Part shown: positions 6,217-14,830 of the stretch, in pieces | Layout of the letters: every line of letters begins with the position of its first letter | Numbering within the stretch: position 1 is the stretch's first letter | Origin: Mobula hypostoma | Taxonomy: Eukaryota | Reading direction: 5' to 3' | Assembly: GCF_963921235.1 (NCBI RefSeq) | Contig: NC_086107.1 | Coordinates: 97,714,001-97,778,000, forward strand | Length of the DNA stretch: 64,000 bases | Notes under the pieces: generated by a model | What the model was told of the DNA's origin: nothing | The model's database searches: none | What the model saw: the letters and a program-made list of their open reading frames with translations, nothing else | Program-made: the position numbers and the translations under genes

Positions 6217-6776
6217 GTTTCCGAGCAACGCAAACCTTCCGCGCCACAAGCAGACCTGCTGGGCTTTATCCTGTTGCGCTTTGTGTCCTGCTGTGCCCCT
6301 CTTCACCTGGGACCTGCCTCGATTACCTCCCCTCCCGTCTGTCCCTCCTTTGCCCCCTCCCTTTCTCACTCACACCCTCTCGTAGTTCTGTCCTCTGTTT
6401 TACCCGGTTCCTGTTTTGCTTCTCGTTTATACTTAATTTCTCTCTCCGCCCACTGCCAAGGGGTTCCTCTCCAACTGTCTCTTTCTGGCTCTGTCTGGCA
6501 AATCCTCTCCGCCTGTTAAACTTTACGTATCTGCTGTTAGCCATCTCCTGTGTCTTTCAGCCTTCAGTCAGCGTTTAGCTATGAGATTTTGAATTCCTCG
6601 ATGCATTTTGTATGTTGACCTCTGCTTTACCCTGCCCCCACCAGACTCTGATTTATAATTCACTTAGTTCAGTTTCTCCTTGTCTCTTCTCTATCCATAC
6701 GTCTGGGAGAGCGGTGCAAGTGTGTTAAATGAATATCCCCATGGGAGACTGAAATGTTATACCAGCAGACATTAAG

Positions 6777-6779
6777 ACA

Positions 6780-6830
<51 letters not shown>
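6777..6830. repeat. (CA)n microsatellite
   Basis: Direct inspection. Confidence 0.95.
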
Positions 6831-8104: not shown

Positions 8105-8440
8105 GCGCGTAAGACGAGCCTTTGCACTCTGGTCGCCGCGGCAACACGGATATTTCAGCGGCACCCATTAACCTTCTCATTCTTATATCGGCCCACGGCC
8201 TCCTCTACTGCCACAATGAGGCCAAACGCAGGTTAGAGGAACAATTCCTCATATTCTGTCAGGGGGACCTCCAACCTGATGGCTTGACTATCCTCATGAC
8301 TTGCCCATCACCTCCTCCCCTTTATACCTTGGTCTACCGTCCTCTCCTATCCAATTCATTCTTCTTCAACCCTTTATCACCTCCCACCTCCCCTACCCAC
8401 CCACTTTCCTCCTCGTCTGGCCTCACCTGTCACTTCCCTT
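8105..8440 (+). mobile_element. Degenerate Penelope-like fragment (GIY-YIG C-terminus)
   Basis: Peptide HGLLYCHNEAKRRLEEQFLIFCQGDLQPDGL, matching the other Penelope fragments here. Confidence 0.7.
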
Positions 8441-8659
8441 CTCCAAGAATCACTAGTTCTGGAATGGTTCCAGAGAACTGGAAAATTGCAAATGTCACGC
8501 CACTCTTTGAGAAGGAGGGGAGGCAAAAGACAAGAAATTATAGGCCAGTTCACCTGACTTTTAGTGGTTGGGAAGATGTTGAAGTTTATTAGGTGGAAGC
8601 GGGCGAGGCGAGGAAGGTTTGACATTCATTTTCTGTTGCTATTTGAGGAGAGGGGCATT

Positions 8660-9595
8660 ATGACTGTGAGGGCAGTTTGCTGTTCTCGGTGTCGGATGTG
8701 GGAGGCCCTGGAGTCTCCAAGCCTCCCGGACGTCTACATCTGCGCCAAGTGCATCGAGATGCAGCTCCTAAGGGACCGCGTTACGGAACTGGAGCTGCAG
8801 CTCGATGACCTTCGTCTGGTCAGGGAGAGCGAGGAGGTGATAGAGAGGAGTGGAAGGCAGGTGGTCACGCTGGGGCCACGGGAGGCAGACAAGTGGGTCA
8901 CGGTTAGGAGGGGGAAGGGGAAAAGGCAGGTGATGGGGAGTACCCCGGCGGCTGTGCCCCTTAACAACAGGTACTCCTGTTTGAGTACTGTTGGGGGGGA
9001 CAGCTTACCCGGGGGAAGCGACAGTGGCCCTGCCTCCGGCACAGAGTCTGGCCCTGTAGCTCAGAAGGGTAGGGCAAGGAAGAGGAGGGAAGTTGTGATA
9101 GGGGACTCGATAGTAAGGGGGTCAGATAGGCGATTCTGTGGACGCAGTCCAGAGACTCGGATGGTAGTTTGCCTCCCTGGTGCCAGGGTCCGGGATATTT
9201 CTGATCGTGTCCAAGATATCCTGAAGTGGGAGGGTGAGGAGCCAGAGGTCCTGGTACATATAGGTACCAATGACATAGGTAGGAAAAGGGATGAGGTCCT
9301 GAAAGAAGAATATAGGGAGCTAGGAAGGGAGTTGAGAAAAAGGACCGCAAAGGTAGTAATCTCGGGATTACTGCCTGTGCCACGCGACAGTGAGAGTAGG
9401 AATGCGATGAGGTGGAGGATAAATGCGTGGCTGAGGGATTGGAGCAGGGGGCAGGGATTCAAGTTTTTGGATCATTGGGACCTCTTTTGGCGCAGGTGTG
9501 ACCTGTACAAAAAGGACGGGTTACACTTAAATCCTAGGGGGACCAATATCCTGGCAGGGAGATTAGCGGGGGCTACTGAGGTGACTTTAAACTAG
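8660..9595 (+). CDS. CR1 ORF1p: Zn-finger, leucine zipper and SGNH/GDSL esterase domain (311 aa)
   Basis: CSRC...CAKC; LRDRVTELELQLDDL; esterase blocks VIGDS, LPGA, HIGTND, DGLHLN; uninterrupted from ATG 8660 to TAG 9593-9595. Confidence 0.9.
   Translation: MTVRAVCCSRCRMWEALESPSLPDVYICAKCIEMQLLRDRVTELELQLDDLRLVRESEEVIERSGRQVVTLGPREADKWVTVRRGKGKRQVMGSTPAAVPLNNRYSCLSTVGGDSLPGGSDSGPASGTESGPVAQKGRARKRREVVIGDSIVRGSDRRFCGRSPETRMVVCLPGARVRDISDRVQDILKWEGEEPEVLVHIGTNDIGRKRDEVLKEEYRELGRELRKRTAKVVISGLLPVPRDSESRNAMRWRINAWLRDWSRGQGFKFLDHWDLFWRRCDLYKKDGLHLNPRGTNILAGRLAGATEVTLN
9586..9592 (+). promoter_or_regulatory. Candidate -1 ribosomal frameshift slippery heptamer T_TTA_AAC
   Basis: ORF1 reads ACT TTA AAC TAG; the -1 frame TTT AAA CTA GAA TGG TTG... 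is the ORF2 frame. Confidence 0.6.
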
Positions 9596-9600
9596 AATGG

Positions 9601-12600
9601 TTGGGGGGTGGGAATCAAATTAAAGAGGCTAGGTGTGAGGAGGTTAGTTCACAACAGAGGGATGGGAACCAGTGCAGAGAGACAGAGGGGTGTAAAGTGA
9701 GCGTAGAAGCAAAAAGTACAAAGGGGAAAAGTAAAAGTGGCAGGCCGACAAATCCAGGGCAAGCATTAAAAAGGGCTAAGAGAGTTGTAAAAGAGCGCCT
9801 GAAGGCTTTATGTGTCAATGCAAGGAGCATTTGTAATAAGGTGGATGAATTGAAAGTGCAGATTGTTATTAATGATTATGATATAGTTGGGATCACAGAG
9901 ACATGGCTCCAGGGTGACCAGGGATGGGAGCTCAACGTTCAGGGATATTCAATATTCAGGAGGGATAGACATGAAGGAAGGGGAGGTGGGGTGGCGTTGC
10001 TGGTTAAAAAAGAGATTAACGCAATAGAAAGGAAGGACATAAACCGGGAAGATGTGGAATCGATATGGGTAGAGCTGCGTAACACTAAGGGGCAGAAGAC
10101 GCTGGTGGGAGTTGTGTACAGGCCACCTAACAGTAGTAGTGAGGTCGGAGATGGTATTAAACAGGAAATTAGAAATGTGTGCAATAAAGGAACAGCAGTT
10201 ATAATGGGTGACTTCAATCTACATGTAGACTGGGTGAACCAAATTGGTAAAGGTGCTGAGGAAGAGGATTTCTTGGAATGTATGCGGGATGGTTTTTTGA
10301 ACCAACATGTCGAGGAACCGACTAGAGAGCAGGCTATTCTGGACTGGGTTTTGAGCAATGAGGAAGGGTTAATTAGCGATCTTGTCGTGAGAGGCCCCTT
10401 GGGTAAGAGTGACCATAATATGGTGGAATTCTTCATTAACATGGAGAGTGACGTAGTTAATTCAGAAACAAAGGTTCTGAACTTAAAGAGGGGTAACTTT
10501 GAAGGTATGAGTCGTGAATTAGCTAAGATAGACTGGCAAATGACACTTAAAGGATTGACGGTGGATATGCAATGGCAGGCATTTAAAGGTTGCATGGATG
10601 AACTACAACAATTGTTCATCCCAGTTTGGCAAAAGAATAAATCAAGGAAGGTAGTGCACCCGTGGCTGACAAGAGAAATTAGGGATAGTATCAATTCCAA
10701 AGAAGTAGCATACAAATTAGCCAGAGAAAGTGGCTCACCTGAGGACTGGGAGAAATTCAGAGTTCAGCAGAGGAGGACAAAGGGCTTAATTAGGAAGGGG
10801 AAAAAAGATTATGAGAGAAAACTGGCAGAGAACATAAAAACGGACTGTAAAAGCTTTTATAGATATGTAAAAAGGAAAAGACTGATAAAGACAAATGTAG
10901 GTCCCCTGCAAACAGAAACAGGTGAATTGATTATGGGGAGCAAGGACATGGCAGACCAATTGAATAATTACTTTGGTTCTGTCTTCACTAAGGAGGACAT
11001 AAATAATCTTCCAGAAATAGTAAGGGACAGAGGGTCCAGTGAGATGGAGGAACTGAGCGAAATACATGTTAGTAGGGAAGTGGTGTTAGGTAAATTGAAG
11101 GGATTGAAGGCAGATAAATCCCCAGGGCCAGATGGTCTGCATCCCAGAGTGCTTAAGGAAGTAGCCCAAGAAATAGTGGATGCATTAGTGATAATTTTTC
11201 AAAACTCGTTAGATTCTGGACTAGTTCCTGAGGATTGGAGGGTGGCTAATGTAACCCCACTTTTTTAAAAAGGAGGGAGAGAGAAACCGGGGAATTATAG
11301 GCCGGTTAGCCTAACGTCGGTGGTGGGGAAACTGCTGGAGTCAGTTATCAAGGATGTGATAACAGCATATTTGGAAAACGGTGGAATGATTGGACAAAGT
11401 CAGCATGGATTTGTGAAAGGAAAATCATGTCTGACGAATCTCATAGAATTTTTTGAGGATGTAACTAGTAGAGTGGATAGGGGAGAACCAGTGGATGCGG
11501 TATATTTGGATTTTCAAAAGGCTTTTGACAAGGTCCCACACAGGAGATTAGTGTGCAAACTTAAAGCACACGGTATTGGGGGTAAGGTATTGGTGTGGGT
11601 GGAGAATTGGTTAGCAGACAGGAAGCAAAGAGTGGGAATAAACGGGACCTTTTCAGAATGGCAGGCGGTGACTAGTGGGGTACCGCAAGGCTCAGTGCTG
11701 GGACCCCAGTTGTTTACAATATATATTAATGACTTGGATGAGGGAATTAAATGCAGCATCTCCAAGTTTGCGGATGACACGAAGCTGGGTGGCAGTGTTA
11801 GCAGTGAGGAGGATGCTAAGAGGATGCAGGGTGACTTGGATAGGTTGGGTGAGTGGGCAAACTCATGGCAGATGCAATTTAATGTGGATAAATGTGAAGT
11901 TATCCACTTTGGTGGCAAAAATAGAAAAACAGATTATTATCTGAATGGTGGCCGATTAGGAAAAGGGGAGGTGCAACGAGACCTGGGTGTCATTATACAC
12001 CAGTCATTGAAAGTGGGCATGCAGGTACAGCAGGCGGTGAAAAAGGCGAATGGTATGCTGGCATTTATAGCGAGAGGATTCGAGTACAGGAGCAGGGAGG
12101 TACTACTGCAGTTGTACAAGGCCTTGGTGAGACCACACCTGGAGTATTGTGTGCAGTTTTGGTCCCCTAATCTGAGGAAAGACATCTTTGCCATAGAGGG
12201 AGTACAAAGAAGGTTCACCAGATTGATTCCTGGGATGGCAGGTCTTTCATATGAAGAAAGACTGGATGAACTGGGCTTGTACTCGTTGGAATTTAGAAGA
12301 TTGAGGGGGGATCTGATTGAAACGTATAAGATCCTAAAGGGATTGGACAGGCTAGATGCGGGAAGATTGTTTCCGATGTTGGGGAGGTCCAGAACGAGGG
12401 GTCACAGTTTGAGGATAGAGGGGAAGCCTTTTAGGACCGAGATTAGGAAAAACTTCTTCACACAGAGAGTGGTGAGTCTGTGGAATTCTCTGCCACAGCA
12501 AACTGTTGAGGCCAGTTCATTAGCTATGTTTAAAAGGAAGTTAGATATGGCCCTTGTGGCTACAGGGGTCAGGGGGTATGGAGGGAAGGCTGGGTTCTGA
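9601..12600 (+). CDS. CR1 ORF2p: APE endonuclease and reverse transcriptase, with one in-frame TAA at 11266-11268
   Basis: APE motifs NARS, ITETW, YRPP, GDFN, SDH; RT motifs YLDFQKAFDKV, GVPQGSVLGP, KFADD. ORFs 9601-11268 and 11320-12600 are in the same frame. Confidence 0.92.
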
Positions 12601-13704
12601 GTTGGATGATCAGCCATGATCATAATAAATGGCGGTGCAGGCTCGAAGGGCCGAATGGCCTACTCCTGCACCTATTTTCTATGTTTCTATGTTTCTATTA
12701 CTAAGAATGTGGCTTCGGGATACTTGGAGGTGCGTGATAAAAAAAAAGCCCGAAGTCAGCATGGTTTCCTGAAGGGAAAATCTTTCCTGACAAATCTGTT
12801 GGAATTCTTTGAAGAAATAACAGGCAGGATGGACAAAGAAGAGACAGTGGATATAGTTTATTTAGACTTTCTAGATTTACCTAGATACTAGCATAGATTG
12901 AACATTGTCTGACTGGCAAGGAGGCAAGACTTGAAATTAAGGGGGTGTTTTCTGGTAGAATGCAGGGGTGTTCCACAGGGGTCCGTGTTGGGACCGCTTC
13001 TTTTCTGGTTATGTATCAACGATCTGGATGGCGGAATTGATGGCTTTCTGACAAATTTGCAGACGATACCAAGATAACCGGCGCAAAGATGTGGCAACAG
13101 TTCTGGATGCTTATAGGAAGGAAACTGACCAGAATAATATCACAATTAGAATTAGGTTTACTCTCAATGGCAGGGTGTTTTTGAGGCAACAGTAAAGTGC
13201 AAAGGTATAACATTCCTATAAATATCAGAAAATAAAATACTGCAAAAGAATAATGAGGAAGTCTTCAAGGATCGTTCAGAAATATCTAAAGATTCAGAAG
13301 TAAATTTATAGTCAAAGTTTACGGCCCTGAAATTCACCTTCCCCACAGACAGCCATGAAGAAAGAAAATCCATGGAACCCGCCCGTTCGAAGAAAAACAT
13401 CAAGCTTCAAACGCAACACAAAAGAAGCTAAGACTTTTGCACAGTACTGAAACATTTGACTCGTTCAAAGAAAACATCAAGTACCCAATGCGCAAAAAAA
13501 AAGAACAAATCATGTAAACAGCAAAGAAAGAGAGAATAACACACAGAAACATCAAACCGCAGAGTTCTTGAAACAGCCTGGGAATGTTCAGTTCAGTTCA
13601 GTTCAATTTAGCTCTGTTTCGATCGCTGATTGCAGGCCGCAGAGACAGTCCACATCAAAGTGCCCTGATCAAAATTGCGCAAAATAGCAAAAAAAAAGGA
13701 GTAA

Positions 13705-14258
13705 AGCAACACTTTCAGTACGCTGGATGAACTCAGCAGGTCGGGCAGCATCAGTCAGAAATGATGAGTCGACGTTTCGGGCTGGAACCCTTCGTCAGGA
13801 TTGAAGAATGAAAGATGGGGAAGGATTTGAAGAATGCTTGTAGCGTCAGTTGAAAGACCAGTAATTTGAAAGACAAAGGAGTGGGGGAGGGGAAGCAATG
13901 ACGTCATAGCCCTGAAAACAATGGGTAGTAGAAGAAGGAGGCAGAACCATGAGGGAGCTGGGGGAGGGGGCAGAGTCAAATAGGGATAGAAGAAGGGAGG
14001 GGGAGGGAATTACTGGAAGTTGGAGAATTCTATGTTCATACCAAGGGGCTGGAGACTACCTAGACGGTATATGAGGTGTTGCTCCTCCAACCTGAGTTTA
14101 GCCTCATCATGGCAGTAGAGGAGGCTATGTATGGACATATCTGAATGGGAATGGGAAGCAGAGTTGAAGTGGGTGGCTACCGGGAGATCCTGTCTGTTGT
14201 GGCAGATGGAGTGGAGGTGCTCGACGAAGCGGTCCCCCAATCTGCATCGGGTTTCACC
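13705..14258 (-). mobile_element. Penelope-like element 3' fragment (GIY-YIG plus terminal repeat)
   Basis: Peptide GETRCRLGDRFVEHLHSIC..DLPVATHFNSASHSHSDMSIH..RLEEQHLIYRLGSLQPLGMNIEFSNF. Confidence 0.88.
13766..13803 (-). ncRNA. Minimal type I hammerhead ribozyme motif (Penelope terminus)
   Basis: Minus strand reads CAATC-CTGACGA-AGGG-TTCCAG-CCC-GAAA-CG-TC-GACTC: intact core, stem II and GUC site; stem I imperfect. Confidence 0.65.
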
Positions 14259-14830
14259 TCCACTCCGTCCGCCACAATGGGGTGAGCAGAATGGATCCAA
14301 ATTAGGGCTGCTTAGTCATGGATGCAGCTGCTGAAGATCTCCTTCTGCCTCAGTCCAAGAGCCCAATGACTGAATGAACCACCCACCACCCAACGTGCAA
14401 GCTCGTGACTTCTTTCAGTCCTCACGATCCTACCCCCTTCACCACCTAGTGATCACCAAGGGACTTATTCTGGGAGGTTGGGGTGGATTCCCTTAATGGA
14501 GAATGCCTGAGTTTGACCTTGCTTGAAGTGGGGAGGCTAATTCACGGGCAGCCACCACGCAGTCCTTTACAGATCAGAGTCAGGGTCCGGTGACACGGAA
14601 AACAAGACAACTGGGACCCTTCGCTGCTGCAGTCTTCCTCCGCCCTCACTGCCATTCTGACGTGTCATCATCTTCCACCTGCTCCACCATCAAGGTCGTC
14701 ATTGGATCGCAGTTTGTCTGAAACCTCCCACTTGATCTTAACAACATGACCTTACTTCTCTGAGGACCATCACCTTGCCATGGCGAAGAGTTCCTGAGAG
14801 CAAAGACGTCTGCAGTTCAGCTCTGGGTAG

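Follow-up and report, generated by a model that had tools for sequence, protein, structure and literature searches.

The window analysed here is a stretch of 64,000 nucleotides (nt) from Mobula hypostoma (contig NC_086107.1, positions 97,714,001 to 97,778,000 of the forward strand; positions below are counted from its first letter). It contains a full-length long interspersed nuclear element (LINE) of the CR1 clade, the two open reading frames (ORFs) of which meet at the heptamer T_TTA_AAC. We find that a conserved programmed -1 frameshift at this heptamer probably yields an ORF1-ORF2 fusion protein in CR1 elements. According to this proposal, most ribosomes would translate ORF1 with its zinc-finger-like motif, coiled coil and esterase and then terminate at its TAG, while a minority would slip back by one base on U_UUA_AAC. 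The slip would be a tandem one, with the P-site tRNA-Leu on UUA and the A-site tRNA-Asn on AAC re-pairing with UUU and AAA, after which reading would continue with CUA GAA UGG onward. The fusion would comprise about 1,316 residues, with the join ...Thr-Leu-Asn-Leu-Glu-Trp..., and would carry the endonuclease and the reverse transcriptase as retroviral Gag-Pol does; a low rate of frameshifting would be suitable because a LINE needs little ORF2 protein. The putative cassette has three parts, i.e. U_UUA_AAC, the directly adjoining stop and a run of five or six Gs about 10 nt further. ORF2 lies in the -1 frame, in several lineages no usable AUG is available to it, and the nucleotides of the junction are conserved across distantly related CR1 elements.

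The junction in the window and in copies of its family

ORF1 of the window element ends in ACT TTA AAC TAG, so that TTTAAAC (9586-9592) stands in exact X_XXY_YYZ phase immediately before the stop, as the preliminary description of this DNA had stated. ORF2 is read in the -1 frame; this frame is shut by a TGA at 9577-9579 and open from 9580, which again matches that description and leaves an overlap of just 16 nt between the two ORFs (9580-9595, stop included). The first ATG in the ORF2 frame is indeed the one claimed, at 10204 (IMGDFN); it is codon 209 and lies behind the catalytic endonuclease motifs NARS (9817) and ITETW (9892). Likewise, the ATG at 9597 proved to be out of the ORF2 frame, in the +1 frame. 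TTTAAAC alone is unremarkable (9 occurrences in the 64-kb window, counting both strands); T_TTA_AAC is, at the same time, the single in-phase X_XXY_YYZ site among the 311 codons of ORF1. Judged from the sequence, the arrangement at the junction is beyond chance in the phase, the place and the conservation of the heptamer. Transcriptional slippage was considered as a different source of the frame change and rejected, as the overlap 9580-9592 (13 nt) contains no homopolymer longer than 3 nt and such slippage is thus unlikely.

Downstream of the heptamer, GGTTGGGGGGTGGGAATC begins at 9599, 6 nt behind it, and the G6 run proper begins at 9603. A G-rich stimulator 6 nt downstream had been suggested earlier; its position is right and a run of five or six Gs is conserved among relatives, but no stable structure is predicted for it. 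A second G-rich motif, GGGATGGGAACCAG, is found at 9659-9672, 67 nt behind the heptamer, and a near-identical motif comes directly after the heptamer in two other CR1 families of this genome (families 3 and 4, see below). In its linker, the window family may thus have gained about 57 nt through an insertion or duplication that kept the frame.

A search of the genome itself (3.48 Gb, 200 contigs) with a 601-nt query returned at least 1580 first-look candidates, and the 40 scored matches were about 100% identical to the query. The segment 9577-9616 is unchanged in all 30 loci that were fetched (window copy included). A common 5' end is shared by 16 of the 29 other copies, which are alike up to 944-952 nt upstream of 9540, and the remaining 13 are 5'-truncated; ORF2 is open in 23 of the 29 (607 codons covered). 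The nearest annotated protein, from a devil ray, is 98% identical. The window element belongs to a young family, and the junction is genuine family sequence. An insertion or deletion (indel) in the window copy, by which the ATG at 9597 might have come into frame, was ruled out, since 30 of 30 copies are identical at the junction; a copy-specific indel is therefore not the cause of the frame relation. No sequencing run recorded as RNA contains the stretch. Four sequencing runs of uncertain kind (they may be DNA) showed 40 differences, with 0 in 9586-9618 and 31 in 9431-9585; a further 18 differences in these runs are not among the 40 shown, and the runs were given no weight.

The junction in other CR1 families and in distant relatives

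With a catshark ORF1 protein (P0057) as query we obtained 100,334 first-look candidates in the same genome, which yielded three further CR1 families. Family 2 (L031-L060) is old and decayed, and its ORF1 ends in GCT TTA AAC TAA. The exact heptamer is present in 17 of the 30 copies in the ORF1-end stretch examined, and in 16 of the 27 in which the heptamer region can still be recognised. When the majority columns of family 2 are read over 140 codons from the heptamer (27 of 30 copies; the 3 without a recognisable heptamer were dropped), the -1 frame contains 0 stops, compared with 13 and 18 in the other frames. ORF1 ends in GGT TTA AAC TAA in family 3 (L061-L067, L069) and in GCT TTA AAC TAG in family 4 (L068); in both, the -1 frame is open from the heptamer over the roughly 400 codons fetched, and both junctions closely match a sawfish consensus labelled LINE/CR1 (PMC13343379). 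In one copy of family 3 (L062) the ORF1 stop has become GAG behind an intact heptamer; this is a decayed copy and not a variant of the cassette.

For more distant relatives, metagenome contigs were scanned with an alignment of 35 ORF1 proteins, giving 42 loci. In the best-matching segment their ORF1 is 23-55% identical to that of the window (24-39% for the 17 loci used for junctions). Thirteen loci have a clean ORF1 end: 12 read NNT TTA AAC followed by TAG or TAA, and one reads G_TTA_AAC TAG; the heptamer is still present in 4 further decayed copies. Where a long ORF2 is intact (L071, L073, L076, L080, L081), the -1 frame extends from the heptamer over 403 to at least 835 codons, reaching into and past the endonuclease. 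Throughout the families and metagenome elements compared, an intact ORF2 invariably uses the -1 frame, which is open from the heptamer onward. The deviating locus, L076, has G_TTA_AAC in place of T_TTA_AAC and a G run only 7 nt behind it, with an ORF2 intact over at least 835 codons. L083 and L104 have lost the ORF1 stop; like L062, they are decayed copies rather than cassette variants.

An alignment of 20 junctions from about nine diverged lineages shows TTAAAC to be invariant and the preceding T to be present in 19 of the 20. Directly behind the heptamer, 19 of the 20 junctions have a stop triplet (14 TAG, 4 TAA and 1 TGA), the TA of which is at least 90% conserved. In 17 of the 20, five or more Gs in a row begin 7-10 nt behind the heptamer, again with at least 90% conservation of the G-run columns. 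The sequence flanking this cassette is unconserved.

The motif also occurs in published consensus sequences. In Supplementary Table 2 of PMC13343379, which holds consensus sequences of vertebrate CR1-group LINEs and was searched over the first 400 letters per cell, the heptamer plus stop has 23 matches, and 17 of the 22 shown are the end of an ORF1. The matches come from alligator, saltwater crocodile, sawfish, Atlantic stingray, small-spotted catshark, spiny dogfish, elephant shark, coelacanth, bullfrog and bowfin, plus one element of the Crack clade, and most of them have a G-rich tract a few nt behind the heptamer. As consensus sequences of old families carry indels, we used this set for the presence of the motif only. 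One catshark consensus, ScyCan_CR1-1b, starts exactly at the heptamer; it may represent a variant without ORF1 that has its 5' end at the junction, or merely a trimmed consensus.

Taken together, four CR1 families of this genome and distant metagenome elements preserve the heptamer, hold it in phase and have ORF2 in the -1 frame, which is the outcome of the comparison that the preliminary description had proposed as a check. The gag-pol-like fusion by -1 frameshifting that it had put forward hence gains comparative support, and the junction motif also appears in consensus sequences from other vertebrate classes.

The conservation might reside in the protein rather than in the RNA. We found 120 ORF1 homologues, 90 of which reach the C-terminal region, and 81 of these 90 end in Leu-Asn, with rays, sharks, coelacanth, frogs, turtles, squamates (lizards and snakes) and birds all represented. 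In an alignment of 35 sequences with a mean column identity of 38%, Asn311 never varies and Leu310 reaches at least 90% conservation. It could accordingly be argued that ORF1 protein needs its Leu-Asn end, that the G run is an RNA site for packaging or protein binding (G-rich tracts are common protein-binding sites), and that no recoding takes place, the route to ORF2 being left unspecified. We consider this scarcely probable. The residue preceding Leu-Asn is encodable by NNT in 83 of 85 cases, with residues that NNT does not encode (K, E, Q, M and W) making up 14% of the preceding 30 residues. All lineages for which DNA is available use TTA plus AAC, which in the window element account for just 17% of the Leu codons and 37% of the Asn codons, respectively. 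Fixation of such minority codons points to a constraint on the nucleotides and not merely on the protein. Codon usage and junction alignment thus agree in that heptamer and phase are conserved among relatives beyond what the protein needs. A non-recoding role would, in addition, not account for a G run that is kept in differing reading frames across lineages, or for the fact that in every lineage the -1 ORF opens exactly at the motif.

Routes to ORF2 and candidate stimulators

Several observations weigh against frameshifting or limit its generality. The ORF2 frame is other than -1 in four degraded metagenome copies and, by hand count, in one alligator consensus, deviations that we ascribe to indels. 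In 9 of the 90 ORF1 homologues the Leu-Asn end is missing; P0115, P0116 and P0119 end otherwise (..SQGN, ..KEFFR) and look like lineages with another type of end, so the cassette is probably not universal among LINEs with an esterase ORF1. An AUG in the ORF2 frame follows the heptamer ahead of the endonuclease domain in six lineages (at codon 4, 5, 16, 23, 29 or 39), and a separate ORF2 protein could start there. For 17 lineages and the window, the 90-108 nt following the heptamer were folded as single sequences. The folds gave no stable stem-loop 5-9 nt downstream in any of the 17 lineages (z-scores of -1.06 to +1.77; pseudoknots and long-range pairing not searched) and a G-quadruplex in only 2 of the 17 junctions. 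For the window there is no stable fold in 9593-9700 (z = +0.33 against dinucleotide shuffles); folding of this segment had been proposed in the preliminary description, and the structure hoped for did not turn up. Finally, studied LINEs do without the mechanism: L1 and SART1 are stated to make ORF2 without frameshifting in passages of PMC3894237 and PMC5009743.

Several of these points would fit a separate ORF2 protein made by re-initiation or by an internal start near the junction, which we regard as unlikely on the whole. Translation would begin at an AUG where one is present and at a non-AUG codon elsewhere, as proposed for mammalian L1, and the role of the conserved motif at the junction would be to keep the ribosome in place, or to shift it, after termination. 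Besides the AUGs that six lineages have 4 to 39 codons after the heptamer, the conservation of the stop directly at the site speaks for such a route, as does the lack of a predicted frameshift-stimulating structure. Precedents exist in the AUG-independent ORF2 translation of L1 and in the UAAUG stop-start coupling of SART1 (passages of PMC5009743 and PMC3894237). L1 and SART1 resemble CR1 in their bicistronic LINE RNA, their short or absent gap between ORF1 and ORF2 and their low ORF2 output; however, according to these passages they produce a separate ORF2 protein and have no slippery heptamer, whereas frame relation and heptamer in CR1 point to a fusion. The start codons themselves fit re-initiation poorly. 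No restart AUG in the ORF2 frame overlaps the ORF1 stop or lies near it, and a search of the 20 junctions for a conserved AUG found none; the sole AUG beside the window stop (9597) is in the wrong frame and not conserved. From the heptamer to the catalytic motif of the endonuclease, the window family, family 4 and L071/L073 are devoid of any AUG. An in-frame AUG before the endonuclease domain in other copies had been named beforehand as evidence contrary to frameshifting, and such AUGs do exist in some families; their positions vary, however, and since three lineages with a long intact ORF2 have none, a conserved start is not in evidence. Motifs of the termination upstream ribosome-binding site (TURBS) type, which serve termination-reinitiation, are of the UGGGA type, complementary to 18S rRNA, and lie within about 90 nt. 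A lone upstream TGGGA is located at 9476, 117 nt before the stop and within a conserved protein motif. Above all, re-initiation leaves unexplained why the X_XXY_YYZ heptamer is invariant and in phase, why a wobble T precedes it, and why ORF2 invariably occupies the -1 frame and is open from the heptamer.

If, in contrast, a -1 frameshift takes place, the question is what stimulates it. Across lineages the G run is read in different frames, which marks it as a feature at the nucleotide level; as no stable structure is predicted for it, we can only infer its role as a stimulator, in the same way as we infer slippage itself, its efficiency and a contribution of the adjacent stop. The fixed distance of the G run, 9-10 nt, exceeds the usual spacer. 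G-quadruplex RNA is able to stimulate -1 frameshifting (as stated in part of PMC3919603), and a G-quadruplex was considered as a general stimulator and dropped in view of the 2 in 17 junctions. A stem about 33 nt downstream, noticed by eye in four related metagenome contigs, was discarded as too distant and not general. The frameshift sites of arterivirus nsp2TF and cardiovirus 2B* have linear, protein-dependent stimulators 11-15 nt downstream. By analogy, the G run of CR1, 9-10 nt off, may be comparable to these as a short element with little or no structure at a fixed and longer-than-usual distance. Linear stimulators 12-15 nt 3' of the shift site that act together with trans-acting factors are described in passages of PMC5009743.

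A pause might alternatively be imposed by the stop itself: with a stop that is slow to decode waiting in the A site, the P-site tRNA-Asn alone would move from AAC to AAA, and the adjacent stop rather than a downstream element would be the pause signal. The stop directly behind the heptamer in 19 of 20 junctions is in accordance with this single-tRNA slippage, as is the absence of a predicted downstream structure. A stop directly behind the shift site also contributes to -1 frameshifting in plant viruses, namely luteo-, diantho- and umbraviruses (passages of PMC4737148). Single-tRNA slippage would, however, require neither T_TTA, which is as strictly conserved as AAAC, nor the wobble T, which is kept as well, and the G run at a fixed distance would have no explanation. 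We therefore hold it to be quite improbable and favour tandem slippage. The 'shifty stop' viruses (BYDV, RCNMV, GRV, PEMV) differ from CR1 in that they need a large bulged hairpin after the stop and long-distance pairing; nothing comparable is predicted in CR1.

Among well-studied systems, the frameshift site of coronavirus ORF1a/1b uses U_UUA_AAC. CR1 resembles this site and the Gag-Pol of retroviruses and of retrotransposons with long terminal repeats (LTRs) in the X_XXY_YYZ motif at the end of the upstream gene, in the polymerase encoded in the -1 frame and in the small amounts of fusion to be expected. It differs from them in being a non-LTR LINE with an esterase-type ORF1 instead of Gag, in the lack of a predicted pseudoknot or hairpin, and in a stop that abuts the heptamer, with a G5-6 run as the only conserved downstream element. 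Frameshifts have also been stated for three non-LTR elements of other clades and hosts. For Dictyostelium TRE5-A and TRE3-A, a -1 frameshift is stated to be required for ORF2 (passages of PMC5911963), and for Drosophila HeT-A a frameshift within gag is stated (passages of PMC5009743); a conserved U_UUA_AAC cassette does not appear in these passages, nor does the name CR1. We found no statement on frameshifting in CR1 in the literature searched; several founding CR1 papers lie outside its scope and may describe the junction. The main text of PMC13343379 mentions neither a frameshift nor an overlap.

The element, its surroundings and its wider meaning

By its sequence, the element (Table 1) is a recently active CR1-clade LINE, having an esterase ORF1, an ORF2 with apurinic/apyrimidinic (AP) endonuclease and reverse transcriptase, and an 8-nt repeat tail. 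Residues 146-294 of ORF1 match Pfam Lipase_GDSL_2 (PF13472) with an E-value of 3e-16, and the cysteines C8, C11, C28 and C31 are invariant or near-invariant in the 35 aligned homologues. ORF2 matches Exo_endo_phos (PF03372, E = 2.3e-12) and RVT_1 (PF00078, E = 1.1e-32). The 3' end consists of short 8-nt direct repeats (ATGTTTCT at 12681-12696) rather than poly(A), which we take to be a hallmark of CR1, so that the tail would be CR1-type. An esterase-type (SGNH) ORF1 has been reported for vertebrate CR1 and L2 (passages of PMC13343379). The window copy itself is dead because of a nonsense codon private to it in ORF2; its family looks active.

Table 1. Features of the CR1 element and of its ORF1-ORF2 junction (positions in the window)
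Feature	Position	Strand	Remarks
Full-length CR1 LINE	about 8590-12698	+	inserted in older decayed CR1
5' untranslated region (UTR) of the full-length copy	8590..8659 (5' end approximate, 8588-8594)	+	from copy comparison
ORF1, 311 codons + TAG	8660..9595	+	CxxC...CxxC motif N-terminal, coiled-coil-like stretch, SGNH/GDSL esterase domain
TGA closing the -1 (ORF2) frame	9577..9579	+	two codons upstream of the heptamer
ORF2 in the -1 frame: linker, AP endonuclease, reverse transcriptase	9580..12600	+	from ORF and Pfam matches
Slippery heptamer T_TTA_AAC (putative)	9586..9592	+	X_XXY_YYZ phase with ORF1
ORF1 stop TAG	9593..9595	+	directly 3' of the heptamer
G tract G6-T-G3, candidate linear stimulator	9603..9612	+	starts 10 nt behind the heptamer
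TAA nonsense codon private to the window copy, inside ORF2	11266..11268	+	AAA in 28/28 comparable copies
3' UTR	12601..12698	+	ends with two and a half copies of the 8-nt unit ATGTTTCT

The young element is flanked by ORF2 pieces of an older CR1 at 8460-8589 (..NVTPLFEKEGRQKTRNYRPV.. before it) and 12699-12890 (..SQHGFLKGKSFLTNLLEFFEE.. after it). Open stretches with similar peptides (..LLYCH.EAK.RLEEQ.LI..G.LQP.G..I..) occur at 8113-8300 (+) and 14010-14315 (-); they resemble the tails of another repeat and are unrelated to the CR1 junction. At 6760-6830 there is a TG/CA dinucleotide microsatellite, which reads CVCVCV / THTHTH in translation.

A farther-reaching interpretation, which we offer tentatively and with considerable doubt, is that CR1, which in many vertebrates is the dominant group of retrotransposons, has made its enzyme as a Gag-Pol-like fusion for more than 400 million years by means of a cassette of a new type, in which the adjacent stop and the G5-6 tract, read by a trans-acting factor, stimulate the slip instead of a folded RNA. 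This factor could be a host protein that binds G tracts or the ORF1 protein of the element itself, and in the latter case the supply of ORF2 would be coupled to the level of ORF1.

How the second gene of LINEs is translated is a long-standing open question that has been partly answered for L1 and SART1 only. If frameshifting at the heptamer is true, this question would be directly testable for the CR1 clade with a short reporter insert, and CR1 would be a case in nature of frameshifting in which no RNA structure is evident. It would also supply a rule for annotation, i.e. to join ORF1 and ORF2 at the heptamer, where predictors now use internal AUGs or call a pseudogene. As regards the elements themselves, the CR1 enzyme would be joined to ORF1 protein on entering the particle, with consequences for cis-preference, for the proportion of the two proteins and for the use of the esterase.

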